Below, one piece after another: positions 7,342 to 53,463 of a stretch of 64,000 nucleotides of DNA; within the stretch, counting starts at the first letter, position 1, and each line of letters begins with the position of its first letter. The notes below the pieces were generated by a model, which worked only from the letters and a program-made list of their open reading frames with translations, was not told the origin of the DNA and did not search any database. Source of the DNA: a virus (taxonomy: Duplodnaviria > Caudoviricetes); IMG/VR virus record IMGVR_UViG_3300020050_009209. One strand, given 5' to 3'. Position numbers and translations under genes: made by a program.

Positions 7342-7701
7342 ATGAGTATGGTCAACTTAGGTCTTTACAATCAGGTACTTAGGCTACTAGAAGCTGAAAT
7401 GAGACAGTTTGTGTACCGGGTAAAGCTAAACGATGCCCCAGATATATGGGGTCCCATGCTTATCGTAGGGCAGTCCTTTGTGGACCAGGCCAGACAAGAT
7501 TGGGTTGAGAACGCCCTCCCAAGCCTTAAGCTCAGCGACCTTCACAAGGTTCTCCCTCTAGCTATACAGAGAGCACGAAAGTCCACGACAGACCTTCTAC
7601 AGGACCAGGTACCCGAGGTAAAGTCCCTTGTAGCAAACTTGGATTGCCCAATTGAGTACTTGGTATCGGTAACTATCTCTGACGGTGGGGCCTTAGGATG
7701 A
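7342..7701 (+). CDS. hypothetical protein
   Basis: ATG 7342 is 9 nt after GGTGTA (7327-7332). Confidence 0.65.
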   Translation: MSMVNLGLYNQVLRLLEAEMRQFVYRVKLNDAPDIWGPMLIVGQSFVDQARQDWVENALPSLKLSDLHKVLPLAIQRARKSTTDLLQDQVPEVKSLVANLDCPIEYLVSVTISDGGALG

Positions 7702-8183
7702 GAGTTGGAGACCTCTACCGAATAGACAATCAGTTGTGGTTGATCGCAAGCTACAACCCGAACGTTAGGACCGGTCAGGCGGTAAGTCCAACTCACGAGA
7801 GAATGACAATTCTGGACGAACCTGATTTGAAGCCTTTCGCGCACCCGCTATCGGAGTGGTATGTGCTTTTGGGTTCGGTACAGAAGAAGGCGGGCCCATA
7901 CACTCAGGTTCAGATTCCAGCGAGTAACGTGACTCTAAAGCCTCACGAGCAATGGGTTCAAGTCATTCCAGACTTAGATGGGGGTAGTATCCTTGTTAAC
8001 CCTAAGGTTACCCTACCCTATGGTACAGTACTTTTAGCTCAACGTGATAATGGGACTGGAGCTAGATTCACGGTACCTCTTAAGTGTCGCACCTTACCTC
8101 AGACGCAAGCTGAGACTCAGAGAGGGATTCCCAAGATTGTGACCAAGAGCAGGTTTGATCGTTTCCGAGACGGTGAGGAATAA
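7698..8183 (+). CDS. hypothetical protein with near-C-terminal SRFDRF tag
   Basis: 161-aa ORF ending TKSRFDRFRDGEE. Confidence 0.7.
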   Translation: MRVGDLYRIDNQLWLIASYNPNVRTGQAVSPTHERMTILDEPDLKPFAHPLSEWYVLLGSVQKKAGPYTQVQIPASNVTLKPHEQWVQVIPDLDGGSILVNPKVTLPYGTVLLAQRDNGTGARFTVPLKCRTLPQTQAETQRGIPKIVTKSRFDRFRDGEE

Positions 8184-8813
8184 ATGAAGCGGCACCTCCC
8201 TATCCTTGTGAGTAGGTCTGTAGGGGCGACTCAAAACGTACGCCTTGACCTTGCCTCGAAGTTTGAGATGCAGACCAGGCAAAAAATGACAGAGAGCGGG
8301 TCACGAGTGACCTGCACGGTAGGTTGCTCTAGCTGCTGTCACCATCCGATTCAGATCTCTATTTTCGAGGGGATTCTCATCTATCGCTGGCTAGTTCAAA
8401 ACCACAAGTGGACAACTAGACTGAAAGAGAAGCTCAAGAAGGTATCGGATCAACAGTATGGTACAAGCTTCGAGGTGTGGCTACTCTCCAACATCCCATG
8501 CCCTCTCCTAGAGGACAACAAGTGCTCTGTATACAAGGCCAGACCGCTAGTCTGTAGAGCCTACTTTGCTACGAGTGACCCCTACTACTGCCACCCTCAT
8601 CGACTTGGAGTCATGACCCAAATCGTATCGAGGGAGGAAGTGGTAGATGCCTTTAACGCTCAACAGGAGACTGAACTCCGTCAACACAAGCTGCAATTCA
8701 TGACTATGCCTATTGGGGCTGCTGTTTTGCTTGGGGCTCAAGTGTGCGAAGAAGGTCTTGAGCTAGCTAATCTAGATCGGCTAATCTACCAAGAGTACGT
8801 AGAGAAAGGCTAG
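8184..8813 (+). CDS. YkgJ-family (CxxxCxxCC) cysteine-cluster protein
   Basis: CTVGCSSCCH and CPLLEDNKCSVYKARPLVCR. Confidence 0.85.
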   Translation: MKRHLPILVSRSVGATQNVRLDLASKFEMQTRQKMTESGSRVTCTVGCSSCCHHPIQISIFEGILIYRWLVQNHKWTTRLKEKLKKVSDQQYGTSFEVWLLSNIPCPLLEDNKCSVYKARPLVCRAYFATSDPYYCHPHRLGVMTQIVSREEVVDAFNAQQETELRQHKLQFMTMPIGAAVLLGAQVCEEGLELANLDRLIYQEYVEKG

Positions 8814-8818
8814 CTGCT

Positions 8819-9118
8819 GTGAAAGTTACATGCGCCATATGCGCTCGACGTAGAGATGAGAGTTCCTGTAAGGCCATCCCTACTACGAAGGCAGACCGAG
8901 CCCAGTTGCTAAAAATGGGGGAGAAGACCCCTCAAGTGGTGTACCACTACTGTCGACCGTGTCTGCGCATACTAGAGAACCCAGCCACTGCACTCGACCT
9001 ACTTCGTGGTATGATGCGCATTTACGCTCAAGCTGCGGGGGCGTCAAACCCAGACCAGATTGCTAGTAAGTACAAGAGTCAACTAGCTGCGAAGATTCCA
9101 AGGCATAAGCCTTCATAG
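8819..9118 (+). CDS. hypothetical zinc-binding protein
   Basis: CAIC...CRPC. Confidence 0.6.
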   Translation: MKVTCAICARRRDESSCKAIPTTKADRAQLLKMGEKTPQVVYHYCRPCLRILENPATALDLLRGMMRIYAQAAGASNPDQIASKYKSQLAAKIPRHKPS

Positions 9119-9130
9119 TAGAGGAACCCA

Positions 9131-9616
9131 ATGAGTCAAGATGTCGGACGTATGATGGCTGAGGCGCTCAAGTCTCAAATGCCAAGCCTAAAAACTCAAG
9201 CTCAATTCACAGCATTTATGGTGACCTTCGACGCGTTTCGAGGGCTCATGGATGCAACCTTTTCTCTTGACCCCGCTCGTGTCGTAGAGTGCCGGGACGT
9301 GTTTGAGAAAGCACTTAAGGCGTCGAAAGACGTTACGGAGCTTGGGCTCAAGTTCGAGGAGGTACCGCCTGAGAATAGGGGTGTAGCTTCGGATGCCTTC
9401 ACTCAGCCTCCAAAGGAGTACCAAGAGTACGACATCCAAAAGCAACTCATCCTAGAGTTGGAGAAGATTGAGACCTTAGCCGAGCTGTCTAAGTGGTACC
9501 TAGCGACGACCACGTTGAGGAGTCGTGTTGTCTCTCAGGTACTTAGAAATGTGCTGATCGACATGATCCGAGATAAGAGGCTTCTTTTTGAGGCCGCTGA
9601 AAAGGTGGACTCTTGA
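9131..9616 (+). CDS. hypothetical protein
   Basis: GAGGA SD, 161 aa. Confidence 0.7.
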   Translation: MSQDVGRMMAEALKSQMPSLKTQAQFTAFMVTFDAFRGLMDATFSLDPARVVECRDVFEKALKASKDVTELGLKFEEVPPENRGVASDAFTQPPKEYQEYDIQKQLILELEKIETLAELSKWYLATTTLRSRVVSQVLRNVLIDMIRDKRLLFEAAEKVDS

Positions 9617-14074: not shown

Positions 14075-14913
14075 AGCCCGATAGCCTAAAACCTTGGGCT
14101 ATCTATAAGCTCACAGACCCACGTGAGCCTGATGTTGTTAGGTACATTGGCAAAACGCACCTCGCTGACCCCAGACGTCGCCTTCGAAAACACCTGACTG
14201 AGGCTGTGTCCGGACGGGATAAAACTTACTGCGGTAACTGGAAAAGGTCACTACTGGACGCTGGGGTCGAACCCTGTCTAACCATCATTGAATTAGGGGA
14301 AGGAGAAGGATGGGCGGATGCTGAGATGTATTGGATCACACACTATCAAAATGACGCTCGCTCACGTCTGACTAACTTGACGAAAGGGGGCGTAGGCATA
14401 GTTGGGTATCAGCATAGCCCTGAGACGAGAGAAAAGATTGCAGGCGCTCTTCTTGGTCACGTGGTATCCGTGACCACACGAGAAAAACTTCGTCATGCTA
14501 ACACCGGTCGTATTGCACCCAGAGATCAAGTGGAAAGATCATCGGCTGCCCGTCGAGGCAAAAAACGGTCTGCATCTGCGATTGAGAAAACAGCCGCTGC
14601 GAAGAGGGGTACAAAACACACCCCCGAAGCTATTGAGAAAATGAGAGCTTCCAAGCTTGGTCAAAAGCATACTGAGGAGGCAAAAGCCAAAATTAGTGCA
14701 GCTAATAAGGGGAAAATCCTATCCCCTGAATCCAGAGCCAAGATAGCCGCTGCCGCAATAGGGCGTATACTGTCGGACGAGACCAAAGCCAAGATGAATG
14801 CCGCCAAAAGGGGCCGAAAACAAACCACAGAAACTATTGCTAAACGAGTGGCCACTCGAAAAATCAATCGTGAGTCAAGAAAAGAGCGCAAAGATGAGCA
14901 CTACGTCGCATAA
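14071..14913 (+). CDS. GIY-YIG homing endonuclease with NUMOD3 repeats
   Basis: AIYKLTDP..RYIGKT, AEMYWI, NLTKGG; repeated HSPETREKI/HTEEAKAKIS. Confidence 0.88.
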   Translation: MKPDSLKPWAIYKLTDPREPDVVRYIGKTHLADPRRRLRKHLTEAVSGRDKTYCGNWKRSLLDAGVEPCLTIIELGEGEGWADAEMYWITHYQNDARSRLTNLTKGGVGIVGYQHSPETREKIAGALLGHVVSVTTREKLRHANTGRIAPRDQVERSSAARRGKKRSASAIEKTAAAKRGTKHTPEAIEKMRASKLGQKHTEEAKAKISAANKGKILSPESRAKIAAAAIGRILSDETKAKMNAAKRGRKQTTETIAKRVATRKINRESRKERKDEHYVA

Positions 14914-17176
14914 GATCAGTCCAAATCTGTACCTCGTTCGCCAGGAGATCACAAGGAAGCCAACTGTTCAACGGGTAGAACAACCAACCAATTATATATT
15001 CGTGTGTGACGTGTCCGGCTCTATGTCCAGCGATCTACCGATGATCCGAGAGCAACTTAAGAAGAAACTCCCCAAACTCCTCCGGGAGATGGATACAATT
15101 TCGATCATATTCTTCTCTGGACGCAAGGAGTTTGGAGTTATTCTGGAGGCCGAGCCTGTTGCCACCCTTGCCGATCTAAAAGACGTAAATACAGCAATTG
15201 ACCGCTGGCTTAAGCCAGTTGGTCTCACTGGGTTCAAAGACCCTTTGGAAGAGGTTATAGCACTGACCAAGAGGGTCTCCAAGATCAACAAAAGTACGTT
15301 CGCTCTCTTGTTCTTATCTGACGGCCATGATAATTGCTCTCCTCGTGGAGATGTGCTCAATGCCGTTGAGCAAGCTGGCAAATGCGTTGCATCAGTAACC
15401 ATTATTGAGTACGGCTACTACGCAGATCGACCCCTGCTTACCGCCATGGCGGAGAAGGCAGGCGGTAGCCTCATTCACGCAAACGCCTTCGACAAGTTCC
15501 AGCCTATCTTTGAAGCCTCGATGGCAAAGCGCCCTCTTGGAGCCTCCAAGGTTGAGGTGTCCATCTCTGGGGATGCGATTGGAGGATTTGTCTGGTCCCA
15601 AGAGAGTGGAGACCTGACAACTTACTCGATCGATGGCGATAAGGTACGTGTTACTGAGGGCACTGGAGATCTTTGGTACTTGTCCCCTAAGCCCAATGGA
15701 CTTGAGCACAAGCTTGAGAACTCCTTTGCTCCACTCTATGCGGCAATGAGTTTGTTCTCGGTTCGGATGAAGCCAGAGGTCATCTTTCCGCTCCTCAAGG
15801 CAACGGGGGACGTAAAGTTCATCGAAGACTTTGCCTCCTGCTTTGGTAAGCAGAAGTACAGTGAGTTCATGGATGCTACGAAGGCTGCGGCTTTCAATCC
15901 TAAGTTGTGCTTTAGCAAGGGCTATGACCCCAATAAGGTCCCAGCCGACGATGCTTACACAATCCTCGACTTGCTGAAGCTACTCTCATCCGATGAAGCT
16001 AACCGCGTTCTGTTGGATCACCCAGACTTCAAGTTTAGCTGCATCTCTCGTAAGCGAGTGGACGCAGCGAGTGTTCTGACCGAGGATGAGCAGAAGCAGG
16101 TAGCTGAGATCAGCAGCAAGCTAGCTACCGAAAAGAGCGCAGCCAAGCTGAAGGAGCTTCAAGCCGAGTTGTCTGCAATCACGGCCAAGAAGAATCCTTT
16201 GAAGTTCACGCAGACCTTGCAGCCAGAGGGGTACGCTATCTCCTCTCTCACCTTCAATGAGGACCGTCCCAACGTCAGCATGAAGCTGAAGCTTGAGGGG
16301 ACGGTAGACTTGACAGGTAGGCTCCCAGAGGGAAGTAAGATTCCAGATCAATTCTCTACCTTCCAGTACCGGGATCGTAACGTGGTAGCCGATGGTCTCG
16401 TCAACATGGAGCAACTTCCTGTCCGTGTAACGAAGGCCACGGCAAACGCCCTATCCAAGGTCCTACCCGCTGCGGCTCTTCCTGCGAAGATGATCGTAAG
16501 CAAGGACTACGTAGAGGGGACGATCAACCTCACGGCTCTTCCTGTCATCAACCGTCAAATGTGCAAGACGGCTTCAGCTGCAACCCTGTTCCGCACCCAG
16601 TTCCAGCTGGAGAAGGCTCGGGCAGCTCAAAAGGTGTACAAGGCCTACAAGGATGAGCGGGTTGCGAAGAAGGAGTCCAAGTCTTACCAAGAGACGTATG
16701 GAGCTACCGACGCAGAGTGGCTTAAGGACCAAGGGTTTACGGACTACAGCGGGTTCTCGCCAAAGATGGTCCAGGCAGAGAGCACTGACTTCTACGTAGG
16801 TAAGGCTCTTGAGGTGTCCCTTAAGGGGTACTCCAAGCTTCCCTCGATGACGGAGTACAAGAAGCAAGCCTCTACGAACAAGTTCAATGGGCCTGGACTG
16901 CTCATGAAGCCAGTCGTTGAAGAGGTTGAGGCCTACTTGAACTCGAAGCCTTCAGAGGCTGAAGTCCTTGCTTGGCTTGAGACCAAGACGAAGGCCTCTG
17001 TCAAGGCGGCTCGGGACCTCATCTTTGAGCTTGCTCAAGTGAAGTTTGCAATCGTAGTTGGCCAAGGTTGGTTTGAGGAGTTCTCTTCTCTTGACGAGAA
17101 CTCCCTAACTCTGGAAGTCGATGGGGTCCAGCTAGCTGGCAAAGTCGAGATGAAAGAGATCCAAGTAAAGCTATGA
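14894..17176 (+). CDS. vWA-domain protein with large uncharacterised C-terminus
   Basis: MIDAS DVSGS, T, LSDG; ATG 14894. Confidence 0.85.
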   Translation: MSTTSHKISPNLYLVRQEITRKPTVQRVEQPTNYIFVCDVSGSMSSDLPMIREQLKKKLPKLLREMDTISIIFFSGRKEFGVILEAEPVATLADLKDVNTAIDRWLKPVGLTGFKDPLEEVIALTKRVSKINKSTFALLFLSDGHDNCSPRGDVLNAVEQAGKCVASVTIIEYGYYADRPLLTAMAEKAGGSLIHANAFDKFQPIFEASMAKRPLGASKVEVSISGDAIGGFVWSQESGDLTTYSIDGDKVRVTEGTGDLWYLSPKPNGLEHKLENSFAPLYAAMSLFSVRMKPEVIFPLLKATGDVKFIEDFASCFGKQKYSEFMDATKAAAFNPKLCFSKGYDPNKVPADDAYTILDLLKLLSSDEANRVLLDHPDFKFSCISRKRVDAASVLTEDEQKQVAEISSKLATEKSAAKLKELQAELSAITAKKNPLKFTQTLQPEGYAISSLTFNEDRPNVSMKLKLEGTVDLTGRLPEGSKIPDQFSTFQYRDRNVVADGLVNMEQLPVRVTKATANALSKVLPAAALPAKMIVSKDYVEGTINLTALPVINRQMCKTASAATLFRTQFQLEKARAAQKVYKAYKDERVAKKESKSYQETYGATDAEWLKDQGFTDYSGFSPKMVQAESTDFYVGKALEVSLKGYSKLPSMTEYKKQASTNKFNGPGLLMKPVVEEVEAYLNSKPSEAEVLAWLETKTKASVKAARDLIFELAQVKFAIVVGQGWFEEFSSLDENSLTLEVDGVQLAGKVEMKEIQVKL

Positions 17177-20073: not shown

Positions 20074-20493
20074 ATGATCCCCAAGATATCTGATACTCGA
20101 CTCAAGCAACTCGCAAAAAAGATTCGACCTGTCGTACGAGGATCCAACGGTACCCTTCACTACATTAAGCCTGTTAACCTGAAGGAGACGGCCTTCACCT
20201 GGGATCCAGATCTTGCGGAAGAAACCATTTCTCCCACACTTATCACAACAATCCGCACCTTGCACACCTACGGGTACCATGGTTTTTTCAAGCCGAGCAT
20301 TGCTGAGGTTCTTGCTCAAATCCCACTCGATCTTCTGAACTCAGTGGATGCTTTCGAGACCCATGGCCCCGATACGGCTGAGGACTTTTACCAAGACGAG
20401 GAAACCACGAATGCCTTCAATAGTGGTTTCCACACAGCTAAGACTATGCTCTACCGTAGCACTCAGCCGCAGTCGCGCTTCGAGAGGATCTAG
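20074..20493 (+). CDS. hypothetical protein with C-terminal SRFERI tag
   Basis: HTYGYHGFFKPSIAEVLAQIP; ends QSRFERI*. Confidence 0.75.
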   Translation: MIPKISDTRLKQLAKKIRPVVRGSNGTLHYIKPVNLKETAFTWDPDLAEETISPTLITTIRTLHTYGYHGFFKPSIAEVLAQIPLDLLNSVDAFETHGPDTAEDFYQDEETTNAFNSGFHTAKTMLYRSTQPQSRFERI

Positions 20494-21251: not shown

Positions 21252-21649
21252 GGTCTCGGTCACCTAGCCAGTACCAGACAAATGCCGAGGTACTGGCTAG
21301 GCTCCCAGAGTTTCGAGCCCTAACGAGTGAGGATTCGAGCAGCGACCTCAACATTCTCCTTGACGACCTACTTGCAGGTAAAAGTCCCATTATTGCTGCA
21401 CTTAGTGCCGAGGTGGGGAGCATGCTTGTGGGGTGGGTTGCCTACGAAAGGCTCCCTCGCAGGGGCAAAAGAACAAGCTACATAGTCAACACATTTGTGC
21501 TACCTGAGTACCGGTACCAGGGAATTGCCAACTCCCTTTTGACCTTACTTTTTCAGCACCCTCAGATTGCAGAGACGAAGATCCTAGTAGACCCAGAGCT
21601 TGAGTCCTTCTGCTCTAGGTTCCCAAGATTGAGGGTGTATGGTACCTAA
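21203..21649 (+). CDS. GNAT acetyltransferase, start uncertain
   Basis: Motif A FVLPEYRYQGIANSLL; frame open from 21203 but first start codon is at 21413. Confidence 0.6.
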   Translation, partial: PRGCACLQACYRRLRLGSRSPSQYQTNAEVLARLPEFRALTSEDSSSDLNILLDDLLAGKSPIIAALSAEVGSMLVGWVAYERLPRRGKRTSYIVNTFVLPEYRYQGIANSLLTLLFQHPQIAETKILVDPELESFCSRFPRLRVYGT

Positions 21650-23723: not shown

Positions 23724-24296
23724 ATGCCTTGCTACAGTACCAATATCTCCACTTTCTCTACCTTACCCGTACCCTTCCAGTTCGAATGGATTGATGCTCC
23801 CTGGGTGAAGTGGGCGCGTAAAGGGGTTCCAGAGGCGTTTGTTGCCGGGTTGGAGGTGAGCGTCACTCTACCAGTAGCTCAACGACAAGTGGACTTCCAC
23901 AGTCCGTTTCCGTTCAGTATCTCTCAGCCTCCTCGATGCCACTGGGTGGTGTATGGGTCAACTTCCAAGCGTCAATGGCCTGTACAGATTGACTACTCAG
24001 ACTACCAAGACCTACTATCTGATTGGACTATCATTGAGGCCTCTCGACCGAGTAAGAAGAACCCTAGTTGGTTTACTGAAGGCCGAACGGTGTATGCTCG
24101 CGATAAGGTACTTGACGAGTGGGATCCCATAGCGTGCAAAATTGCATGCGTTAGAGGTTCTTGGGCTGCAATTGTGACTCTAGATGATAGTGGTAACGTT
24201 GACGTATTTCAAGGGATTTACTCACTTAGAGCATTCCCTTTCAATCCTCTCCTCACTCGCTATGAGCGAGGTATCTTCACCTTTCCAGAAAGTTAA
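23724..24296 (+). CDS. hypothetical protein with near-C-terminal TRYER tag
   Basis: Ends LLTRYERGIFTFPES. Confidence 0.65.
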   Translation: MPCYSTNISTFSTLPVPFQFEWIDAPWVKWARKGVPEAFVAGLEVSVTLPVAQRQVDFHSPFPFSISQPPRCHWVVYGSTSKRQWPVQIDYSDYQDLLSDWTIIEASRPSKKNPSWFTEGRTVYARDKVLDEWDPIACKIACVRGSWAAIVTLDDSGNVDVFQGIYSLRAFPFNPLLTRYERGIFTFPES

Positions 24297-26555: not shown

Positions 26556-27294
26556 GCGCCTCGAACTTCTCCGGGCACTTTCTCTTCAGCTCCTGTGGCT
26601 CTTCAATGTAGGCCCGGAAACTCTCTGCCACATCCTCTACGCCGGGCTTATGCTCGGCGTAGTCTGAGATGAATGGAGGGTTACCCCATGGAGGGCCGTC
26701 AACCCGGTGTGTCTCCTCGAAGGCATGACCCAACTCATGAGTAAGTTGGGTCGTCCTAACCTTAGCGTCATAGCTTTTGTGAATCGAGAGATGCATCACT
26801 CCACCAGACCGCCAAGAGGCGTCCTCGGAACCCATAGGACCGCCAAGGTGAACCTTCTTGACAGACTGGGACCAAACCTGACGAGCCTTGGGCTTGAGCT
26901 TCTTGAACCCCGCAACCCACCCCAAGACAGCCTTCCCAGCCTCGGGGTCATTCTCGAATTTCATGTCTGGGACAACGCTGATCCCCATTTCTCGACCCAT
27001 AGCTAGGAAGGCGTCAACGAAGTCAACAGATTTCGTAGTTTTCGGAGCCTTAACCTTTGTACGCTCTACCAGGCTAACCTCATCTTCGTCTACGCCACGC
27101 GAACGAAGATATTCCCCTAGCTCTGTGACAGGGAACGGAGCAATGGCGTCATTCCGTAGAGACCGGACGAGCTGTTGAATGCGAGTCGTTGCATCCGGGG
27201 CTGCGTTGGCATCAAGTACTTTGAGGATAGCCTCCAGATGCTCCGGAGTAACGTTCTGAGATGCCGCAAATCTCGTAGCGACCCGCAGCGCCAT
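26539..27294 (-). CDS. zincin metallopeptidase with N-terminal RVATRFAA tag
   Basis: THELGH, ISDYA, EDVAESF; ATG 27294. Confidence 0.75.
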   Translation of the reverse strand: MALRVATRFAASQNVTPEHLEAILKVLDANAAPDATTRIQQLVRSLRNDAIAPFPVTELGEYLRSRGVDEDEVSLVERTKVKAPKTTKSVDFVDAFLAMGREMGISVVPDMKFENDPEAGKAVLGWVAGFKKLKPKARQVWSQSVKKVHLGGPMGSEDASWRSGGVMHLSIHKSYDAKVRTTQLTHELGHAFEETHRVDGPPWGNPPFISDYAEHKPGVEDVAESFRAYIEEPQELKRKCPEKFEALKKLV

Positions 27295-27416
27295 GTAGTC
27301 TTCTCTAGAGTTCAAAGAAGTAGTCCCTGTGTGGATGGTTACCTTTGCCTTCGTATAAGTTCCTTCCTCCTGCCCCTCCGCTTGGATAGTCTATTGGTGC
27401 AAGTTCAATACTCGAA

Positions 27417-33706: not shown

Positions 33707-34624
33707 ATGCTCATTCAATTTGACCGCCCCAATCTGCGAATTGACTCTAGCCGGTACCCTCAACACTTGGTACTCATACTTCTGAGTCGGAATCTCACGC
33801 CAACAAGTGTAACTTGTGAGCTTGACTCTTTTGACCAGCTGTTAGCCCCAACTAGAGTCCACTACCTAGATGGAGATCAGCGTATCATAAGAGCTACGTC
33901 AGATAATGGCCTACAGGTGTCCGAGTACGCAGTTTCATTTGAGTCACTGTACGATCCAGACACTAGAAGGCGGCGCCAGCCTCTGGAGTTCAGGTTAAGA
34001 GTCGACTCTCTCTACCTAGAGGACCGAGCTTACCACACAAGGCATGTCGAACTTAACGTAACTTTCCCCTTAGTAGGTGGAGTTGGGACTCTGACTCTAA
34101 ACCCCACCGCTGGGTTTCAATACGACATAGCATCTTCAATAGAGTTACGCCCACCCAACATCGTACAGTTGTGCGACTCGACCGAGATCCTCACTAGTTA
34201 CCGTAGGACTCACGCAGGAAGGGTGCGAAGTCCTGAGGCACACACTCTACGTGATTGGCGAATTGCTAATCCTCAACTCAGTCAGCTAGACTTAGATAGC
34301 GTGCACAGCAGCTTCATCCCTGAGGCTCCCACGGTTTCCGTCAATTTCCCGTCGCTCGAACAAATTGAGAATGCAGTAACTACATTAACCACTAGCCAGC
34401 TCTCGACACTACTAGCCATTGACCCAGAGCAGGCTATTGACCTGGAGCGAGAGCGAGAGTTGCTGAGGGAAGAACTTAACCCAAAGGTAGCCCCCCAAGT
34501 GCCAACGAGTCGATTCGTTCGACCTAACCTAGACACGGACGAATTACTACCGTCTGATGCTAGCTTGGATCAGTCGCCTCCAAAGAGCAGTCTTTCCGGG
34601 GAGGGCAAGAGGGAAGGAGACTGA
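33707..34624 (+). CDS. hypothetical protein
   Basis: 305-aa ORF; TSRFVR near the C-terminus. Confidence 0.65.
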   Translation: MLIQFDRPNLRIDSSRYPQHLVLILLSRNLTPTSVTCELDSFDQLLAPTRVHYLDGDQRIIRATSDNGLQVSEYAVSFESLYDPDTRRRRQPLEFRLRVDSLYLEDRAYHTRHVELNVTFPLVGGVGTLTLNPTAGFQYDIASSIELRPPNIVQLCDSTEILTSYRRTHAGRVRSPEAHTLRDWRIANPQLSQLDLDSVHSSFIPEAPTVSVNFPSLEQIENAVTTLTTSQLSTLLAIDPEQAIDLERERELLREELNPKVAPQVPTSRFVRPNLDTDELLPSDASLDQSPPKSSLSGEGKREGD

Positions 34625-37412: not shown

Positions 37413-37892
37413 TTAGAATCGATCATAGCGAGATTTAGGGGTGGCGTGTCTCACTGCCTCGATTATCCTGAGGCACTTGGCCTTATCTAGAAAGCCTATC
37501 CTTAGGTAGTCCTGTGGCACACCTAAGAGGGTGTGAATCTCCCCATACTCACACTTACTCCTATCCCAGAAGGTATGCATAGCCTCATACGCTTGATGCC
37601 GTAGCTTTCGCGTCTCAGCGTTTGCAGGAAACCCTAGTGGTTTGGCAGAACGATTACAAGAGAGGGACCCCTTACACTGAGTCTCTCTCCAATTGACGCA
37701 ACCGTAGAAAATGCCGAACTTACTGTCCTTCAGGATGAGCAGTGCTCCACAGTCTGGACACTCCAGGTCATACCTTTGCTTTGGGTAGGTTTGAGCCAGT
37801 ACTTCCCGACTGGTCAACCTCCTGGGGACCTCGAATGGAAAGGGGTCCTCAGAGGTTAGCGCTAACCCAATAGAGTTGTCGTCAAATGCCAT
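37413..37892 (-). CDS. zinc-finger protein (topoisomerase C4/DUF3268-like) with C-terminal SRYDRF tag
   Basis: CPDCG..FYGC..QC..PLGFPA; ends KSRYDRF*. Confidence 0.75.
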   Translation of the reverse strand: MAFDDNSIGLALTSEDPFPFEVPRRLTSREVLAQTYPKQRYDLECPDCGALLILKDSKFGIFYGCVNWRETQCKGSLSCNRSAKPLGFPANAETRKLRHQAYEAMHTFWDRSKCEYGEIHTLLGVPQDYLRIGFLDKAKCLRIIEAVRHATPKSRYDRF

Positions 37893-39679: not shown

Positions 39680-40534
39680 CTATTCTTCTCGCTTGAGGGC
39701 CTCATCTAACAAGGCTTGCTTTGTTTTGGGGCCCACGACTCCATCTGGAGTTAGGTCGTGTGCTAGCTGAAATTGCTGAATGGCATTCTTGGTTTTTGGG
39801 CCAAGAATGCCATCGGCTGATCCTAGATCGAACCCCTCAGCTATCAGCTCTCGCTGCCATTGTGCAACGTCCTCAAAGTCAGCTAGGGTGAGCTTTGGCG
39901 GAGTCACACTAGGGTCGGAGAGTCCCATCACGTCCTCATAGGCAGTAGAGCCCATGAAGGCCTTGAATGAGGGTCGCATCCCATTCGCATAAGCACTAGC
40001 GTCAGCTGTAAAGTAGCCTTTAGCTCTAAGGCATACTGCAAACTCATCACAATCTCCGACGAGGACTCCCTTAGTCCACCCTTCAGCATAGCGCTTCTTC
40101 AAGAAGCGTACATGGTCTCTCATGGCCTCGTTCAAAGAAGCGAATGCCCGAAACCTAGTCTGAGGGTGTGGGGGCTTGAAGATAATCGAAACCCTCCCTG
40201 GACCTACAGCTTTCGCGTGGTCTTCGCTAGGATCTGCGACTGCCTCTCCGTTGGCAATCAACCGAGCAGCTTCTGCTGGGTTGAACCCTTCCCATACGCC
40301 ATTCAGGTACTGGTAGTCGTAGCCGTCTCCAGCTACTTTCTTGACGTTACCAATATTCCAGTTCCAGCACGCCCTGTTGCCAGTCTCGACCATGTATTGG
40401 GCCCAGAGGACTCCAATACTCGCCTTCGATGGAACTCCCTCTTCCACCAGGCTCCAAGCATCTACGACAGCTTGGACGTAGAGTTGTGGGGTTAGTTTTG
40501 TAGCAAGCTTAGGGACAAGTTGGTTGGACGCCAT
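39680..40534 (-). CDS. endolysin: GH73 glucosaminidase-like domain plus C-terminal peptidoglycan-binding domain
   Basis: VETG..WNWNIGN.K, FRAF, GYFTA..Y; DGILGPKT...FQ...DGVVGPKT. Confidence 0.85.
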   Translation of the reverse strand: MASNQLVPKLATKLTPQLYVQAVVDAWSLVEEGVPSKASIGVLWAQYMVETGNRACWNWNIGNVKKVAGDGYDYQYLNGVWEGFNPAEAARLIANGEAVADPSEDHAKAVGPGRVSIIFKPPHPQTRFRAFASLNEAMRDHVRFLKKRYAEGWTKGVLVGDCDEFAVCLRAKGYFTADASAYANGMRPSFKAFMGSTAYEDVMGLSDPSVTPPKLTLADFEDVAQWQRELIAEGFDLGSADGILGPKTKNAIQQFQLAHDLTPDGVVGPKTKQALLDEALKREE

Positions 40535-41610: not shown

Positions 41611-43265
41611 TCAGTGCTCATTTCTATGGTTGCTAGGTCCTCTGGGATCTTACCGCTGGTGGCAAGTCCAGTGATTAGCCGATTGATCTGACTTCTCTTA
41701 GCCGCATCCAAAGGTCCAGCCCTACGAGGGCTTGGTAGCCGTAGAGTAAGGAACAAGGACTCGGTAAGTGTGAGTCTCATGGGAGTTGTGTCGAGCAGCT
41801 TCTTTGTTGCGGGGCCTATCCCGTAGAGGTCTGGTCCGAACTCCACAACATTGAGGTACAGTTCTAAGATCTGAAACTTGGAGAGGTGGCTCTCTAGGTC
41901 AATCGTTAGGAAGGCCTCTTGGACCTTTCGCCCAAGGGTCTTGGATCTCGCTAGCCATAGGTTTTTGGCGAGTTGCATGGTCAGAGTGCTTCCCCCACGC
42001 AAGGGCTTCTCTGCCTTCAGGTTAGCTGCAATAGACGACACCAAAGCCTCTCGGATAAAACCATGGTGCAGAAAGAAGGCTCCATCCTCCGTGGTCAGTA
42101 GCGCTGTAATTACGTTTGGGCTAACCTCTTGAAGAGAAACCCAGTCCTTTGTCTTGGATCCGGACATCCTACTCGTCTCACCGTTAGCTCCGACTTGGTA
42201 CTGAAAGGAGTCTTTTAGGCTAGCTACCGCAGGGGAGACGGTAGACTTACAACCCAGATTCCACCGTAGCTTAACCTCTGGCTTCAACTCTAGGTCAAAG
42301 TCAAAGTTTCCCGTATAGGTGGACCCAAGTAGCATAGGAGCTTTGAGTTCTGTGGGTAGCGCTGAGAACCAGGCGCTGCAAGTCTCCGCCCCCCACACCC
42401 TCCTTTTTTCGAGGTTGAAGTGAAGCGTTGCCGAGTCCACTCGAACTCTCTGATCAGAGCTAGCAAGTTTATCTAGGACTACTGGACCCACTTCGATTGA
42501 CTTGAATGTCGTAGGTAAGCAGTTGCCTTGGTGATCCGCGTGTAATTGCTTTGAGCACACTACGAGGGACTCCAACGTGCCGAGTATCCCCTCTGGAGTT
42601 TGCTCTACCTTCATACCTACGGCAGCTAACCCAGCCCCAAAGGCGCTCGTAGTAGTCGACCCTACTTTGAGGGTCTTATTCGCCAAGTGGGCCGTGACCT
42701 TTTGAAATGAGACCTTACCTAGGGTATGCCCCATCACTTGCCCTCTAGGAGTAAACTCCCCGCTATCTAGAAGTACTTGAGAGCCTGTCCGGGTGAGAGT
42801 CACACCCTTCGCGTCAAAGTCTCCTCTAGGGTGGTACCCACTAACCGTCTCAGCCACGACAGCTTGAGACCCAAAACGCACCCCACCTAGGGTCGCTAAA
42901 GACTCTTCGTACGTAGCGTAAACCTCCAGGTCTTCCCCAGTGACTAGATAACCGTCACTTTTCTCATCGCCTTTAGCTCCCTTTGGCTTCTGACTCAGAG
43001 CTATATTGATGCTACCACCCTGCAAGTGAACTTGCTTTGTGTCTCGCCACACATAGACCTTCGGGAAGCTACCCTTCACCCAGCCCCGATCAACTGTCAC
43101 GCCTGAGAGGAGAAGCCCCCCTCTCAGAGGAGCTACTATCTCCACTTTCGTGACGGTTACTCCTGTTTTCCCATTGAGGTAAGCTCGAATAGCAATGGGG
43201 GTCCCAAACCAAAATGCCACTAGGGTAATGGCAAGACCGATCAAGAAGGCGTACTTTTTAGTCAT
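41607..43265 (-). CDS. membrane-anchored biosynthetic peptidoglycan transglycosylase (GT51)
   Basis: N-terminal TM; EDGAFFLHHG, GGSTLTMQLAKN, RKVQE, KFQILELYLN..EFG; no transpeptidase domain. Confidence 0.9.
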   Translation of the reverse strand: MTKKYAFLIGLAITLVAFWFGTPIAIRAYLNGKTGVTVTKVEIVAPLRGGLLLSGVTVDRGWVKGSFPKVYVWRDTKQVHLQGGSINIALSQKPKGAKGDEKSDGYLVTGEDLEVYATYEESLATLGGVRFGSQAVVAETVSGYHPRGDFDAKGVTLTRTGSQVLLDSGEFTPRGQVMGHTLGKVSFQKVTAHLANKTLKVGSTTTSAFGAGLAAVGMKVEQTPEGILGTLESLVVCSKQLHADHQGNCLPTTFKSIEVGPVVLDKLASSDQRVRVDSATLHFNLEKRRVWGAETCSAWFSALPTELKAPMLLGSTYTGNFDFDLELKPEVKLRWNLGCKSTVSPAVASLKDSFQYQVGANGETSRMSGSKTKDWVSLQEVSPNVITALLTTEDGAFFLHHGFIREALVSSIAANLKAEKPLRGGSTLTMQLAKNLWLARSKTLGRKVQEAFLTIDLESHLSKFQILELYLNVVEFGPDLYGIGPATKKLLDTTPMRLTLTESLFLTLRLPSPRRAGPLDAAKRSQINRLITGLATSGKIPEDLATIEMSTE

Positions 43266-43785: not shown

Positions 43786-44010
43786 CTAGAGTAACCCAGA
43801 GTAGTAATCTGCCCACATATCATCCCAAAACTGATGATGGTCTATAGCACAATCTCTACATAATGGTATGGGGGCGTTAGGATCCGAGAGAGGTTCCTCG
43901 AAGATCCGCTCCATTCGCGTTTGGGGTACTGACTCGTAGCAGGTCCTAGAGGGCTCTAGCTCAACTTCGTCCTCCTCAGCTCCTTCAGTTTTACAGCAGC
44001 AACAAAGCAT
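43786..44010 (-). CDS. small zinc-binding protein with TRMERI tag variant
   Basis: CCCC...LCRDCA; QTRMERIF. Confidence 0.6.
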   Translation of the reverse strand: MLCCCCKTEGAEEDEVELEPSRTCYESVPQTRMERIFEEPLSDPNAPIPLCRDCAIDHHQFWDDMWADYYSGLL

Positions 44011-44095
44011 GCGCGTCACGCCCCACCAGGTAAGCAATGCCAGGTCCTAGGAGAACCGCTGCGATGAACACGAATGAAATGACTTTCTGATGCAT
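43991..44095 (-). CDS. 34-aa membrane peptide
   Basis: MHQKVISFVFIAAVLLGPGIAYLVGRDAHALLLL*; GGTGTA 11 nt upstream. Confidence 0.55.
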   Translation of the reverse strand: MHQKVISFVFIAAVLLGPGIAYLVGRDAHALLLL

Positions 44096-44204: not shown

Positions 44205-44579
44205 ATGAACATCAATCCTACGACTTTGAAAGACGCTGGTTATCGAGGCCCCTACCCCCAGCCTATCCATGGGGATTTCTGCCGAGGCTTGTACCAGAAG
44301 ACCGTTCACGGTCAAGCTCATGGCGAGGTGAAGAAAAGCTACTTCATCAACGTCCTCATCTGGGAGTTCCCAAACCGCCCCCTTAGCGCGAGCGTGGACG
44401 TGGTATTCTCCCAAGAGGATGGCCTGACCTCGCGTGGAAGTGAGGGCCGTGATTGTTACACTTCGTTCAAGGTGGACCTTTACCTTGGCGGTGATACAAC
44501 CATCGAGCAAATGGAGGAGTTCTATGCGAAGCTCTACACGAAGCTTGAGTGTACTCCGGACATCCACAACAACGACTGA
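44205..44579 (+). CDS. hypothetical protein
   Basis: AAGGAG upstream. Confidence 0.7.
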   Translation: MNINPTTLKDAGYRGPYPQPIHGDFCRGLYQKTVHGQAHGEVKKSYFINVLIWEFPNRPLSASVDVVFSQEDGLTSRGSEGRDCYTSFKVDLYLGGDTTIEQMEEFYAKLYTKLECTPDIHNND

Positions 44580-47773: not shown

Positions 47774-48715
47774 ATGTCCTTCAACGCCAGAGAAGCGGTT
47801 CGTCTACTCCTTGCTATGTCTATGGAAGAGGCCAAGCAAGCACTAGGATTTGCTCCAAATGCGAATCCTAGCTCGGGAGAGATTCAACGAGCCTATCGCG
47901 CAAAGGCTATCCAAAATCACCCTGACCGTGGAGGTGACCCAAAGAAGATGGTCGTCATCAACGTGGCTAAGGAGATATTGGAGGGGAAGCGAGTCAACGA
48001 TAAGACCGAGTACACTCCGGACGTTGAGGATGCTGGAGTAAAGAAGCAGCGGCAACAAGAGGCGTTTGTTGCGGACGTGAAAGCGGAGAAGGCGAAGGTA
48101 GGGAGTGCATTTGAGTCATCAAAGGCGGCAATTCTATCGCCATTCGGTCGGCACACTATACCATTCCCTGAGTTCTTGGATACTGCCTTCGAGTCAATAG
48201 CCAAGATCCAAGACGAGATTCAGGATACACTAGATGACTCCCCTCAGAAGGACCCAGCTTGGGTGAAGACTCAGCAAATCTGCGATATCATCGTAGGTAA
48301 GATGCGGCGAGTAGATCAGCAACGCATCGCAGTAACTCTGCCCTTACCAAAAATTCTTACTTTCAAGGATATCGAGTCTCGGTTCAGGGCAATGAGGGTT
48401 CTCCTTAAGTCCTACGAGGCTTTGATGGGGGAGTCCTCTAGTCTCGTAGGCTTGCTCAATACTAGTGAGGACGTCCCACTGAATTGGGATAGTATCTACT
48501 ACCACACTCACGGTATGTTCTCGTCTTATCTGTCGAACCTTCGTGACACCTTGAAGCAATTACACTTGACTTCCCTCAAGAAGCAATTAGAGGATAGTAG
48601 AAGCGCTATCATTAAGAGCAAGACTGCCAATAAGATCGGCGGGTTTACTCCTATCGAACAATGGGACCAGCTAGAATTCCCTACAAGCTTCAATGACCTC
48701 ATGGAGGTCAAATGA
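47774..48715 (+). CDS. J-domain (DnaJ) protein
   Basis: EIQRAYRAKAIQNHPDRGGD...INVAKEIL. Confidence 0.85.
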   Translation: MSFNAREAVRLLLAMSMEEAKQALGFAPNANPSSGEIQRAYRAKAIQNHPDRGGDPKKMVVINVAKEILEGKRVNDKTEYTPDVEDAGVKKQRQQEAFVADVKAEKAKVGSAFESSKAAILSPFGRHTIPFPEFLDTAFESIAKIQDEIQDTLDDSPQKDPAWVKTQQICDIIVGKMRRVDQQRIAVTLPLPKILTFKDIESRFRAMRVLLKSYEALMGESSSLVGLLNTSEDVPLNWDSIYYHTHGMFSSYLSNLRDTLKQLHLTSLKKQLEDSRSAIIKSKTANKIGGFTPIEQWDQLEFPTSFNDLMEVK

Positions 48716-49773
48716 ATAACATAATAGCCAGGGTCGTCTACCGGTTCGCAGCAACCAAACAAGAAACCGCCTTCCTCGCCCTTCTGGAAAAGGTACGCCG
48801 GGGAGCGGACTCTTCCCTCAAGTTACCTCAACTACTCCAAATTCTAGACTATCTTGGTGGTTGGAGCTACAAGGCAGTTGACAATATCAAACAGCCTTGG
48901 GTTTCAAAGCCTAAAGTGGTGTCTACTGATACGCTAACAGAGGCAGAAGTTAGGGAGCGCTACCAAGTTCGACTAAGGCTAGAGAGTGGGCCAAAAGTCA
49001 TTGGTAAGGTGTACCCATTTGAGCTTACAGCCCCTAAAGACCTACCTGGAGGTAGTTTCGGATTTACCTACAAGGAGTACATGCTTTCCAACGGGATTTT
49101 GTTTCGATCCCCGGAAGGGAAGGAGTACGAAGCTATTAACGACACTCACGACCAAGTCGACCCATTCCAAGGAGTTATTTGGACCTCAAAGATGAAATCG
49201 TGGTTTCGTACGGAGACTAAGTTCCTTGACCAGATCTCTCAGGTACTTGGGGTGCCTAACTCTGACCGTCCTACATCCACAGGGCTAAGTAAGTCCAAAC
49301 CAAGAGAGCTTAGTGGTACTGGTACCTGCCCAGCTTGTTTCCGTAACATCAAGCTCAAGAAGGCTGGAGATGCCTACAAAATGGTTCTCCATGGTTATGA
49401 GCGGCCAGGGTGGGGGTACACTGAGGGTCGTTGCATTGGAGTGGACCACCCTCCCTTTGAGGAAAGCCCTAAGGGCACTAAAGAGGTGATTAAGGTACTT
49501 GCCCTTCGACTACGGGGGTTGCAGCAATATCTAGTCGACTTGCACTCTGGTAAAATTACCTCTATTCAAAATCGGGACAATGCCGTTGTCCGCAAGGGGG
49601 ACCCCTCCTGGACAAAAGACTACCTTCAGAAGATCTCCGATGTGGAGTACGACTACAAGCAGGTAGATGAGGATGGGAAGGCGTTTGAGAAATTGGTCCG
49701 GGATTGGGTGAAAGCGGATTTACCTAAAACGGGGGATAAAGTAGCACCTCCACCACGCTTCCTTACCTTATAG
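48712..49773 (+). CDS. hypothetical protein with RVVYRFAA tag and C/H zinc site
   Basis: N-terminal tag; GTCPACFR...HGY.RPG.G...C. Confidence 0.75.
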   Translation: MNNIIARVVYRFAATKQETAFLALLEKVRRGADSSLKLPQLLQILDYLGGWSYKAVDNIKQPWVSKPKVVSTDTLTEAEVRERYQVRLRLESGPKVIGKVYPFELTAPKDLPGGSFGFTYKEYMLSNGILFRSPEGKEYEAINDTHDQVDPFQGVIWTSKMKSWFRTETKFLDQISQVLGVPNSDRPTSTGLSKSKPRELSGTGTCPACFRNIKLKKAGDAYKMVLHGYERPGWGYTEGRCIGVDHPPFEESPKGTKEVIKVLALRLRGLQQYLVDLHSGKITSIQNRDNAVVRKGDPSWTKDYLQKISDVEYDYKQVDEDGKAFEKLVRDWVKADLPKTGDKVAPPPRFLTL

Positions 49774-49783
49774 GAGTTACAAA

Positions 49784-50464
49784 ATGTCGCTCTCAGTCAT
49801 CTCAAATGTCGTAGCTAGGTGGAAGAAAAAGGCTAACAACGAGTCCGTCTGGGCCGTAGGATCTGAGCGTAAGGACTACGTTGAGGTCGTTTGGGACATG
49901 TACAAGTCCTCCTACCAAAAAATCGGCATGCACGTTTCAAGCCCTGCGGGTCTCTTGGACTACGACAAGTGGGAAATTATGCTTGACGGAGACAAACCCG
50001 TAGCTTTCAACCTGTACAAGAGCACCTCGATGGGGTTAAAGGCTGGGTTGGCAGGTACGGATGGGTCTGCTGTAGGTAAAAGTTTGATGAAAGACCACTT
50101 CAAGGCTCGACTTCAGCGTCCTGGAGTGTACGCTGAAGTTAGCCATGCCGTAGAGCGTCTAAGTGCCGGAGCCCCTGTCGTTTGTGCTGTACACGTACCC
50201 AAGGTTCTCGGTAAAACTGTAATACCCCAAGAAGATGGGGTACACTACCAAAGGTCACTGGAAGGGTTAGGTCCCGTGGTGAAAAAGTTGATTGGGAACC
50301 CCAAAGGGGTTCCGTCTGGTTCGGAAAATGCGTGTGAGATCTATGCTAACCCAGGGGAACCACTATCCCCCGAAGAGGCTGTAAGGCTCGCAGCTGAGCA
50401 TAAAGTGAGTCAAGAGATTGACATGGCAGAGCATGCCTCTTGTCAACTTGACCTAGACGACTGA
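49784..50464 (+). CDS. hypothetical protein with NVVARWKKKA tag
   Basis: AGGAG SD; N-terminal tag. Confidence 0.75.
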   Translation: MSLSVISNVVARWKKKANNESVWAVGSERKDYVEVVWDMYKSSYQKIGMHVSSPAGLLDYDKWEIMLDGDKPVAFNLYKSTSMGLKAGLAGTDGSAVGKSLMKDHFKARLQRPGVYAEVSHAVERLSAGAPVVCAVHVPKVLGKTVIPQEDGVHYQRSLEGLGPVVKKLIGNPKGVPSGSENACEIYANPGEPLSPEEAVRLAAEHKVSQEIDMAEHASCQLDLDD

Positions 50465-50482
50465 ATGCTCTATAAGAGGGGC

Positions 50483-51925: not shown

Positions 51926-51942
51926 AGCGTACCTCTCGAAAG

Positions 51943-51979: not shown

Positions 51980-51984
51980 TCTGC

Positions 51985-52398
51985 TCATCCGTCTTCGTTG
52001 GGAACTCTGGGTTCATTCCACCCGTAGTGGTCGTGCCAACATTCTAGTACCTCACTAAACGACTCAGGAGGTACAATATCATCAAGGGCATAGTAACTCA
52101 TTACGTCGCTTGAAAGGGCGTTGTAATTGAGGCCAACGGATGGCTTACCCCAAGCATAAGCCATTCCCACCTCTGCCGTAAGGTCTTTGCCGTAGTCTAG
52201 TAGAACCGCAACGAAGAAAAGAGAGGATCGGATCAACTCGACATTACGTTGAAATATGCCTTGCTCAGTTAAGGTCTGATCCGTGTGAGTTATCGCAGAT
52301 ACGGCCTCAAACCCCGCCTCAGTAGCCTGCTTCAGTAGCGCTCTAGTGACGGTTGCATGCTTATTTGGAGAGCAGATATACACTCGTGGAAGTGTCAT
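51985..52398 (-). CDS. nucleoside 2-deoxyribosyltransferase-like protein
   Basis: VYICSP, RNVELIRSS, DLTAEVGMAYAWGKP. Confidence 0.75.
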   Translation of the reverse strand: MTLPRVYICSPNKHATVTRALLKQATEAGFEAVSAITHTDQTLTEQGIFQRNVELIRSSLFFVAVLLDYGKDLTAEVGMAYAWGKPSVGLNYNALSSDVMSYYALDDIVPPESFSEVLECWHDHYGWNEPRVPNEDG

Positions 52399-52655
52399 GG
52401 TTTCGGCTCCTTCTTGCAGATCGAAAACCGAAGCGTGGTGATGTCATATCCGCGCTCCTCTAGTTCGGCGACAAACGACTTAGCATAGGCAATGAATCGT
52501 TCACCGTTGTCACGGTAGTCCACGTACGGGCGCTCGACGCAAAGCACGCTGTACAAGAGGTGCCCATTCGCCTTGTGGTCGGGATGGTGAAATACAAGGT
52601 CCTTCTCCCGCTTGCTCCAGGATGCCTTGAGTGTGTTGGCGTTGGTTCGTTTCAT
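52395..52655 (-). CDS. hypothetical protein
   Basis: ELEERGYDITTLRFSI. Confidence 0.65.
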   Translation of the reverse strand: MKRTNANTLKASWSKREKDLVFHHPDHKANGHLLYSVLCVERPYVDYRDNGERFIAYAKSFVAELEERGYDITTLRFSICKKEPKP

Positions 52656-52665
52656 ATCAGGTCCA

Positions 52666-53238
52666 CTACCTATAGTCCCTTCGCCTAAGTGGCTTACCTA
52701 CACGAACCTTGTGCCCTACTGTCTTGTCCTCTTCCCTAGGAAGAACCGTAACGCAAACGGGTCGAGACTTACCGCCATCCCGACGCATGACGAATATTAC
52801 CCCAGAGGTACTTACCCACTGCTCATCCCCAGTGAGAGTTTTCTCTCGGATAGGGGTAGCGGTCTTAGCCTCTTCCGTCAGGTAAGCTATTGCCCTCTCC
52901 AAGGGTTCGCTGCGGAGGTGACGTTCGGCATACCGCTCAAAGGCATGATTCGTTACCACGAAGGGGAGACGGTAGTGGCAAAGGAGCTTTACAATAGCTA
53001 GCCCTCTTTCCTCTTTTTGCCGCCTGACTTCCTCTCGGGTCTTCGTGTAACGTGGGGATACCCTTAAGTCTTTAGCTAACTTAAGGTTGTTGCGACCAGC
53101 AGCTGTTTGCGCGGTAAGTATGCTAAGACACGCCTCTTGGGTCCTACCCTCTTTAGCTGCCAGAGCACATAGAAGGTCGACCTCGTCTTGAGTAAGGTCC
53201 CTAAGGCAAGCCTCTTTTACCAGTTCGTCGAGAGTCAT
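52666..53238 (-). CDS. hypothetical protein with HAxER (RelE/BECR-like) C-terminal domain
   Basis: TNHAFERYAER...VCVTVL. Confidence 0.55.
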   Translation of the reverse strand: MTLDELVKEACLRDLTQDEVDLLCALAAKEGRTQEACLSILTAQTAAGRNNLKLAKDLRVSPRYTKTREEVRRQKEERGLAIVKLLCHYRLPFVVTNHAFERYAERHLRSEPLERAIAYLTEEAKTATPIREKTLTGDEQWVSTSGVIFVMRRDGGKSRPVCVTVLPREEDKTVGHKVRVGKPLRRRDYR

Positions 53239-53289
53239 GACTTGACTGAGTTTTCATTTTGAATAAGACGTTTGTAGGTTAGTGTAGGT

Positions 53290-53463
53290 GTGAAAAGAGT
53301 TGACACACATCAGAGCCCTGAACCTCACGTCGAATGTCTAGACCCCGCATGTTGTGCGTGTGAGTGCGCAACATGCAAACGTGAGTGGTTTGCAGCGAAT
53401 CGACCTAACCCGAGGGATTGCTTTACGCACAACCCCCCAAAGTCAAGGTTTGATCGAATCTAG
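53290..53463 (+). CDS. 57-aa Cys-rich protein ending in SRFDRI
   Basis: MKRVDTHQSPEPHVECLDPACCACECATCKREW...PPKSRFDRI*; fills an apparent intergenic gap. Confidence 0.65.
   Translation: MKRVDTHQSPEPHVECLDPACCACECATCKREWFAANRPNPRDCFTHNPPKSRFDRI

Follow-up and report, generated by a model that had tools for sequence, protein, structure and literature searches.

A terminal peptide tag on many unrelated proteins of a clade of huge phages, with an AAA ATPase as a candidate reader

The stretch of DNA considered here, 64,000 nucleotides of an uncultured huge phage from IMG/VR record IMGVR_UViG_3300020050_009209 (Duplodnaviria; Caudoviricetes) and referred to below as the window, encodes a set of unrelated proteins that share a short peptide, usually at the C terminus. 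We call this peptide the tag and the proteins that bear it carriers. The tag occurs far more often than expected by chance, is confined to one clade of phages with genomes of 360–510 kb, and very probably acts as a docking motif. A classic-AAA ATPase encoded at 32080–33276 is put forward, tentatively, as the protein that reads it.

Copies of the tag in the window

All counts in this section cover the 64-kb stretch. The motif core, [ST]R[FY][DE]R, has seven matches across the six reading frames, compared with a mean of 0.6 for fifty-nine order-permuted versions of the motif. Six of these seven lie within 13 residues of a stop codon in open reading frames (ORFs) of at least 50 codons, where the fifty-nine permuted controls average 0.08. 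Among the called proteins the core appears six times (mean 0.07 in 1000 within-protein residue shuffles), and five copies fall in the last 14 residues (mean 0.005 in 1000 such shuffles). A scan against shuffled controls had been proposed in the initial annotation of this DNA; scans of the window (shuffled and permuted controls) and of its relatives (permuted controls) place the motif far above chance, with a bias towards the C terminus.

Nine copies had been listed from the letters alone, and every one was found in its place. In ORF 7698–8183 (161 aa), SRFDRF (8148–8165, plus strand) is followed by RDGEE and the stop codon, the whole copy reading KSRFDRFRDGEE before the stop. Four copies end exactly at the stop codon, as had been noted. 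Two of these are in orphans, namely SRFERI (20473–20490, plus strand; QSRFERI before the stop) in ORF 20074–20493 (139 aa) and SRFDRL (27949–27966, plus strand; RSRFDRL before the stop) in ORF 27685–27969 (94 aa). The third is SRYDRF (37416–37433, minus strand; KSRYDRF before the stop) in ORF 37413–37892, a 159-aa zinc-ribbon protein of the DUF3268 / Top1 type. The fourth, SRFDRI (53443–53460, plus strand; KSRFDRI before the stop), ends a 57-aa ORF with a GTG start (53290–53463) that sits between two minus-strand genes. This last ORF was not called by the codon-usage gene caller and has no orthologue support, and the case for a gene here rests mainly on the tag itself. A sixth copy is N-terminal: residues 17–22 of ORF 30472–31002 (176 aa) read SRFDRI (30937–30954, minus strand), within RSRFDRIL. 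The remaining three copies are variants and are described with their orthologues below.

Synonymous codon choice varies among the window copies. Because the codons differ from copy to copy, the tag is not a DNA repeat, and the earlier statement that conservation lies at the level of the peptide holds.

Five window proteins carry a separate, N-terminal tag of the form [RNK]Vxx[RK][FYW] (1030–1641, 26539–27315 on the minus strand, 31028–31249, 48712–49773, and 49784–50464), and all five are without the C-terminal tag. Conversely, a search for [RNK][VI]xx[RK][FYW] found no N-terminal tag on any of the nine carriers, in agreement with the claim that no protein bears both. The two tags have an R-[FY] core in common.

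Tag use among related phages

Relatives of the window were taken from IMG/VR, where they were reached through a 751-aa AAA protein and other proteins. They include G001 (407 kb, with terminal repeats), G005 (363 kb), G003 (448 kb), G009 (a 37-kb fragment), and G039 (512 kb, with terminal repeats, of which the first 400 kb were scanned), together with the more distant G002, G007, and G008. A single definition was used to count C-terminal copies: [STN]R[FY][DESTN][RLHK][ILVMF], starting no more than 18 residues before the stop in an ORF of at least 45 codons. Each count was compared with four permuted controls.

By this definition the window has five copies (controls 0), G001 has twelve (0–1), G005 fifteen (0–2), G003 ten (0–1), and the 400 kb of G039 forty (0–1). 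The more distant relatives are non-users, with one copy in G002 (controls 0–2), one in G007 (0–1), and none in G008 (0–2). These comparisons confine the tag to one clade of 360–510 kb phages. Its form varies within the clade: in G003 it is SRFDL[IM], behind which comes either G plus the stop or an acidic run, and G005 mixes the R and L forms.

Two further contigs, G024 and G021, were considered as users of the L variant on the strength of 5 versus 0 matches to DNA patterns, but the matches were unconvincing in their sequence context. A recurrent ending in G007, GKRYKLEE[VI], was also rejected as an instance of the tag; it is a 34-aa module of one paralogue family. In G007 (L070–L074), 18 small proteins with different bodies share this 34-residue C-terminal module, which ends C[TA][SG]K[IV]VEIDGKRYKLEE[VI]. 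They lie in tandem arrays at about 26.6–29.0, 38.6–40.7, 73.8–78.8, and 106.6–107.5 kb, and one more protein has only the last 11 residues of the module. Another hydrophobic-acidic tail, different from the tag, is found in G001, where two paralogues of ~480–500 aa (60633–62135 and 398956–400389) end in FDF[SM]M[SG]LES[DE].

Consensus, carriers, and orthologues

Across 82 C-terminal copies the logo reads [T53 S25], R82, [F74 Y8], [E44 D31], [R60 L17], [I46 L16 V10], L, any residue, and [DE][DE], preceded by a Pro/Glu-rich lead-in with P at position -1. Position 4 is thus acidic in 75 of the 82. The full consensus is P-[TS]-R-F-[ED]-[RL]-[ILV]-L-x-[DE][DE] and then the stop codon, which usually falls 4–6 residues past the six-residue core (observed span 0 to 11). 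The form first proposed, [ST]R[FY][DE]R[ILF], captured the core and missed the rest of this longer motif, namely the preceding proline, the leucine, and the acidic run. The four window copies that end at the stop codon are the truncated, shortest form of the extended tag.

The tag is not restricted to the C terminus. Conserved N-terminal and internal copies occur in the 176-aa family, in a kinase, and in a loop of an SNF2 helicase; the loop reads YTRFSRIL or YTRYSRV in three phages, and the 176-aa family keeps its N-terminal copy as SRFDRT in G001, TRFELL in G005, and SRFDRL in G039. An ssrA-type degron would be strictly C-terminal with a free carboxylate as part of the signal, whereas the core of the tag can be followed by further residues and also occurs N-terminally and internally. 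Nor does the tag resemble a Tat signal (S/T-R-R-x-F-L-K plus a hydrophobic stretch), as its arginines are non-adjacent, its position is mostly C-terminal, and acidic residues follow it.

The carriers themselves are diverse. BLAST sorts 65 carriers of five phages into 54 families, and the 39 called carriers of G039 form 31 families once their tails are removed; tandem paralogues account for a few of the carriers in G039 and G005. Most are small orphans, and the few known domains are the zinc ribbon (37413–37892), a Ser/Thr kinase, a glucosaminidase, and the SNF2 helicase.

Orthologues show the tag being kept while its surroundings change. When the family of ORF 7698–8183 is aligned across four phages, R-F-x-R are the only invariant residues of the tail. 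In a set of 5.8 billion proteins this family has 40 clusters, 36 of which fit a loose version of the tail motif; the usual ending is xRFx[RHK]IL plus a D/E run after a Lys/Ala/Pro linker that cannot be aligned. Orthologues of the zinc-ribbon protein end in TRFDRVLEDD, SRYDLLDREE, or SRFDLMDEWDGTL, and the orthologue in the non-user G002 is untagged, which answers the question raised initially of whether homologues in other phages lack the tag. The tag can also be added or exchanged. The G001 orthologue of window ORF 44205–44579 gains a PPPTRFERI tail (the extra stretch is EEEGKPPPTRFERI). The glucosaminidase (39680–40534 on the minus strand of the window; L024:12476-13219) has a C-terminal PG_binding_1 domain in the window and in G005, and the G001 protein has the tag, TRFTRVLFDDEDE, in place of this peptidoglycan-binding domain.

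As judged from sequence, these comparisons establish the tag as a selected short linear motif (SLiM) on disordered ends: it is over-represented on unrelated proteins relative to composition-matched controls, and it forms a conserved island inside a variable, low-complexity flank of the orthologues. The same alignments establish, at the same level, that it is modular, being gained and lost on orthologues. We consider it very probable that the tag is a functional docking motif. The initial reading of a docking or degron peptide is well supported at the peptide level, given conservation across phages whose proteins are 30–65% identical, gain and loss on orthologues, and the conserved island within variable tails.

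Three of the nine window copies depart from the core. TRMERI (43903–43920, minus strand; ORF 43786–44037) is followed by FEEPLSDPNA, and TRMERIF aligns with TRFERVL and TRFERIL in its orthologues, within the stretches TRFERVLEPDPPDPNA (G001) and TRFERILDPEPEDPNI (G039). The degenerate SRFVRP (34508–34525, plus strand), followed by NLDTDE, lies 38 aa before the end of ORF 33707–34624, the gene directly after the AAA gene at 32080–33276 and its 96-aa partner. At the equivalent position G001 and G039 have carriers with TRFERIL in the C-terminal third, to which ORF 33707–34624 shows weak homology by sequence. TRMERIF and SRFVRP are therefore supported as variants by these relatives. The third, TRYERG (24255–24272, plus strand), lies 13 aa before the end of ORF 23724–24296 and is doubtful, since it is missing the hydrophobic position 6 and has no orthologue. 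Further weak candidates were seen at 21413–21649 and 60980–61441 (minus strand), with CSRFPRLRVYGT C-terminal and ASRFTRDQW at residue 33, respectively.

A candidate reader

The ATPase at 32080–33276 (plus strand, 398 aa) comprises an N-domain (residues 1–190), an AAA domain, and a tail of ~45 D/E residues. It is a member of the classic AAA clade, whose proteins thread their substrates, with Walker A GSPGSGKT and second region of homology LLRPGRLSR; it matches Pfam AAA at E 1.8e-13, and its nearest PDB relatives are Afg2, Cdc48, and p97, along with proteasomal Rpt subunits. The Asp/Glu tail of ~45 residues is present in all orthologues (L025:14376-15626, L043:5092-6294, L138:5030-6271, L151:14913-16673, L211:5639-6838). 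The G003 copy has, in addition, a 50-residue insert and a long N-terminal extension. Directly downstream in the window is a gene for a 96-aa partner (33416–33706, plus strand), which belongs to no Pfam family; G001, G005, G009, and G039 have it at the equivalent place, with 55–65% identity.

Distribution and gene order both point to this ATPase. Strong matches to its N-domain (E 1e-65 or better) were found, besides the window, only in G001, G003, G005, G009, and G039. The 27 other related contigs have no strong match, with three weak partial matches at E 1e-5 to 1e-7; nine of the 27 are complete genomes, and none of the nine is enriched for the tag. G039 was found independently, through the family of ORF 7698–8183; it turned out to encode the N-domain and to use the tag most heavily. 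As for gene order, the arrangement [protein ending SRFER(D/E)xxI], AAA, 96–99-aa partner, [carrier] is conserved. The protein ending SRFER(D/E)xxI lies directly upstream of the AAA gene in G001, G009, and G039; the partner is found in the window, G001, G005, G009, and G039; and the carrier after it has the tag in its C-terminal third (in the window, the degenerate SRFVRP at 34508). The 176-aa protein with the N-terminal tag is divergently transcribed and stands beside the AAA gene in the window, G001, G009, and G039, and ~5 kb away in G005. G003 adds a hint of covariation: its tag position 5 changes from R to L, and three acidic N-domain positions conserved in the R-type phages are lost, among them the invariant E51, which is I in G003.

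These patterns suggest the following working model. The tag would be added, usually at the C terminus, to disordered ends of a large number of accessory proteins that are mostly small and unrelated to one another, and it would be bound by one common reader, most likely the clade-specific ATPase at 32080–33276 with its 96-aa partner. Tagged proteins would bind to the N-terminal domain of the ATPase, after which the ring would unfold or remodel them or pass them on. The acidic run behind the core and the poly-D/E tail of the ATPase may compete for one basic surface or pore. We regard the ATPase as a possible reader on the strength of distribution and gene order, and we hold the model as a whole just as tentatively. 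The initial annotation had proposed a single phage hub (a clamp-like protein, an AAA+ unfoldase, or a compartment or shell import factor); from phyletic pattern and gene order, this ATPase is the best candidate for such a hub, and a clamp is unlikely.

Several points weigh against the ATPase. The tag users form one clade that has ~80 further clade-specific genes, so the co-distribution of N-domain and tag is confounded by descent. The window gene upstream of the ATPase encodes an untagged protein. The tag is also found on a peptidoglycan hydrolase, on a kinase, and, as an internal copy, in an SNF2 helicase, all of which would be odd substrates for an unfoldase. The E51-to-I covariation of G003 comes from a single lineage. 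The N-domain model, predicted to be alpha/beta, has a moderate pLDDT of 64.8 and gave no decisive fold match. Finally, a host protein could equally be the reader.

Structure searches with the N-domain gave leads of limited strength. Foldseek returned nothing significant, with Bcs1 chains at low ranks only. VIA-align ranked COPI gamma (Z 9.3) and adaptin (Z 7.5) appendage platform domains highest, but even the best of these scores barely exceeds the background of 7–8, so that the appendage-platform fold is a lead only. Appendage platform domains of COPI and adaptin are SLiM-binding hubs. Atlas features of 0.82 and 0.77 towards DUF5925 and BCS1_N-type AAA domains are likewise leads only, and no Pfam match was found at E up to 10. 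A predicted complex of ATPase residues 1–355 (5-row alignment) with the last 44 residues of the 7698–8183 protein (4-row alignment) scored 0.01 against a mark of 0.32, a result that counts neither way.

Alternative readers and functions

Other proteins of the window were tried as readers and set aside. The AAA protein at 24300–26555 is also present in the non-users G002, G007, and G008. For the AAA protein at 29261–30475, the N-terminal part matched only G039 among the relatives compared, and the tag users G001, G005, G003, and G009 are without it. The von Willebrand factor A (vWA) protein at 14798–17176, with an intact DxSxS motif and 59–69% identity, looked clade-specific in the first profile only; it has homologues in ~30 related contigs, some of them complete genomes, and three different DNA patterns for the tag are not enriched in these contigs. 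Phyletic profiling of G001 proteins against G005, G003, G002, G007, and G008 left ~80–127 candidates, because the tag users form one clade.

The strongest alternative is that the tag is a docking motif for a different reader, either a host hub (protease, chaperone, or transcription or translation machinery) or another of the ~80 clade-specific phage proteins. This is a serious possibility, if not a probable one: the case for a docking tag is the same with or without the ATPase, ~80 genes have the same phyletic pattern, and the restriction to one clade could reflect a common host group. No candidate stands out among them, however, and it would be a coincidence that carriers are consistently embedded in the AAA operon. 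It is considerably less likely that the tag directs proteins into the capsid so that they can be injected, in the manner of encapsulin cargo-loading peptides or the T4 capsid-targeting sequence. In favor of this role, unrelated proteins bear a short peptide at their ends behind a Pro-rich linker, a second, N-terminal tag marks a different group of proteins, and tagged proteins include a wall hydrolase and a kinase (some phages package wall hydrolases and kinases). On the other hand, the carriers lie in the accessory arm among small orphans, away from the structural genes, no link to a head gene was found, and up to 40 or more cargo species with acidic tails beside packed DNA seem unlikely. Less probable again is a site for post-translational modification, rather than primarily docking, by the phage Ser/Thr kinase or R2K ATP-grasp ligase. 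Both genes are present, position 4 alternates between D/E and S/T, and acidic runs follow the S/T forms in a phosphomimic-like manner. Against this, position 4 is acidic in 75 of the 82 C-terminal copies, the kinase is itself tagged, and the R2K gene is also found in the non-user G008.

A sliding-clamp-binding motif for the phage DnaN-like clamp, the first of the hubs named initially, is very unlikely. These phages do encode a divergent beta-clamp beside a DnaX-like loader, clamp motifs likewise occur N-terminally, internally, and C-terminally, and the G003 form xRFDL[IM] loosely recalls QL[SD]LF. Yet the observed [TS]RF[ED][RL][ILV]L fits neither QL[SD]LF nor QLxLxL, and the tag is found on a wall hydrolase and on many tiny orphans. 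In the clamp/loader replication block of G001 no ORF of at least 380 aa ends in the tag (the ORFs were not individually annotated as polymerase or clamp clients), and the clamp family spans at least 107 database clusters compared with 40 for the tagged 7698–8183 family. An adaptor role for the vWA protein at 14798–17176, with the tag as ligand of its MIDAS site, is equally hard to sustain and slightly less probable. It would be favored by the intact DxSxS motif, the strong conservation of the protein (59–69% identity), and the acidic residue at tag position 4, but ~30 related contigs have vWA homologues and are not enriched for the tag. That the tag reflects chance, hidden paralogy, or a DNA repeat is scarcely credible. 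The tandem paralogues among G039 and G005 carriers are few, and against them stand counts 10 to 100 times those of permuted or shuffled controls, codons that differ between copies, the 54 families, and conservation of the motif across orthologues.

The DnaN-like clamp of G001 (L014:4343-5602, that is 104343–105602), with L014:8564-10120, was recognized by sub-threshold Pfam matches to clamp domains 1 and 3, which occur in the correct order. Its neighbors are a DnaX-like clamp loader, a PD-(D/E)XK nuclease, and a Toprim protein. Among the 107 clusters listed for its family (at least 107 in all), most are unnamed and the rest are at most a 'hypothetical protein'.

Relation to known systems

Shared terminal peptides read by one hub are already known as a kind, and include T4 clamp tails, T7 acidic tails, degrons, the MIM–MIT pair, and encapsulin cargo peptides. 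Closest to the arrangement suggested here are the N-domains of AAA and AAA+ proteins that read short motifs: the p97/Cdc48 N-domain binds VIM, VBM, and SHP motifs, the Vps4 MIT domain binds the C-terminal MIM of ESCRT-III, and the ClpX N-domain binds the XB tail of SspB. As in those systems, a short motif sits on the disordered ends of many unrelated clients, and the protein put forward as reader joins an N-terminal domain to a classic AAA ring whose closest relatives are Afg2, Cdc48, and p97. Unlike them, the phage tag has an unrelated sequence, and the phage N-domain is predicted to be alpha/beta rather than an MIT bundle or a double-psi barrel.

Among phages, T4 gp43, gp33, and gp55 have C-terminal clamp-binding tails and T7 gp2.5 and gp4 have acidic C-terminal tails, in each case a shared terminal peptide read by a single hub. 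The likeness lies in several unrelated phage proteins ending in one peptide, with an acidic run and a key aromatic residue. Here, by contrast, there are 10–50 carriers per genome, mostly small orphans that are not replisome parts, and the order is R-F-acid-R-hydrophobic followed by the acidic run. Encapsulin cargo-loading peptides are similar in being short, conserved, and terminal, at either end of unrelated proteins and joined by a flexible Pro-rich linker; they differ in motif and in having far fewer carriers, and no link to a shell-protein gene was seen here. What sets the phage tag apart is its scale (up to 40 or more carriers per genome), its use of either protein end, and a candidate reader that can be tested. 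Full-text literature searches on the motif and on tags shared among phage proteins turned up no account of it.

More speculatively, this clade of huge phages may run a tag-and-reader system of its own, in which up to ~1/10 of the genes would be tagged with PTRFERIL plus an acidic run and a Cdc48/Bcs1-like AAA machine with a new N-domain would unfold, remove, or relocate the tagged proteins on schedule, tag and pocket co-evolving (R to L, E51 to I). There is precedent for the reading of short motifs in the p97/Cdc48 N-domains, the Vps4 MIT domain, and the ClpX N-domain. If one reader does serve 10–50 unrelated accessory proteins, the tag would define a functional class among huge-phage orphans that cannot otherwise be annotated, and the system would amount to virus-encoded proteome control through timed removal, remodelling, or delivery. 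Being short, portable, and lineage-specific, the tag could also provide an orthogonal handle once its reader is known.

Other genes of the window

The window codes for three Pfam-AAA ATPases, the vWA protein, and the SNF2 helicase, as well as a GT51 transglycosylase, the glucosaminidase, an aspartate carbamoyltransferase, a Dam-type methylase, and RNase HII. Further genes encode a J-domain protein, a GNAT acetyltransferase, and the R2K ATP-grasp enzyme (58336–59094, minus strand). The last of these is 95% identical to its counterpart in G005 (42314–43072), compared with 35–70% for other shared proteins, and this difference in identity suggests that the R2K gene was recently transferred.

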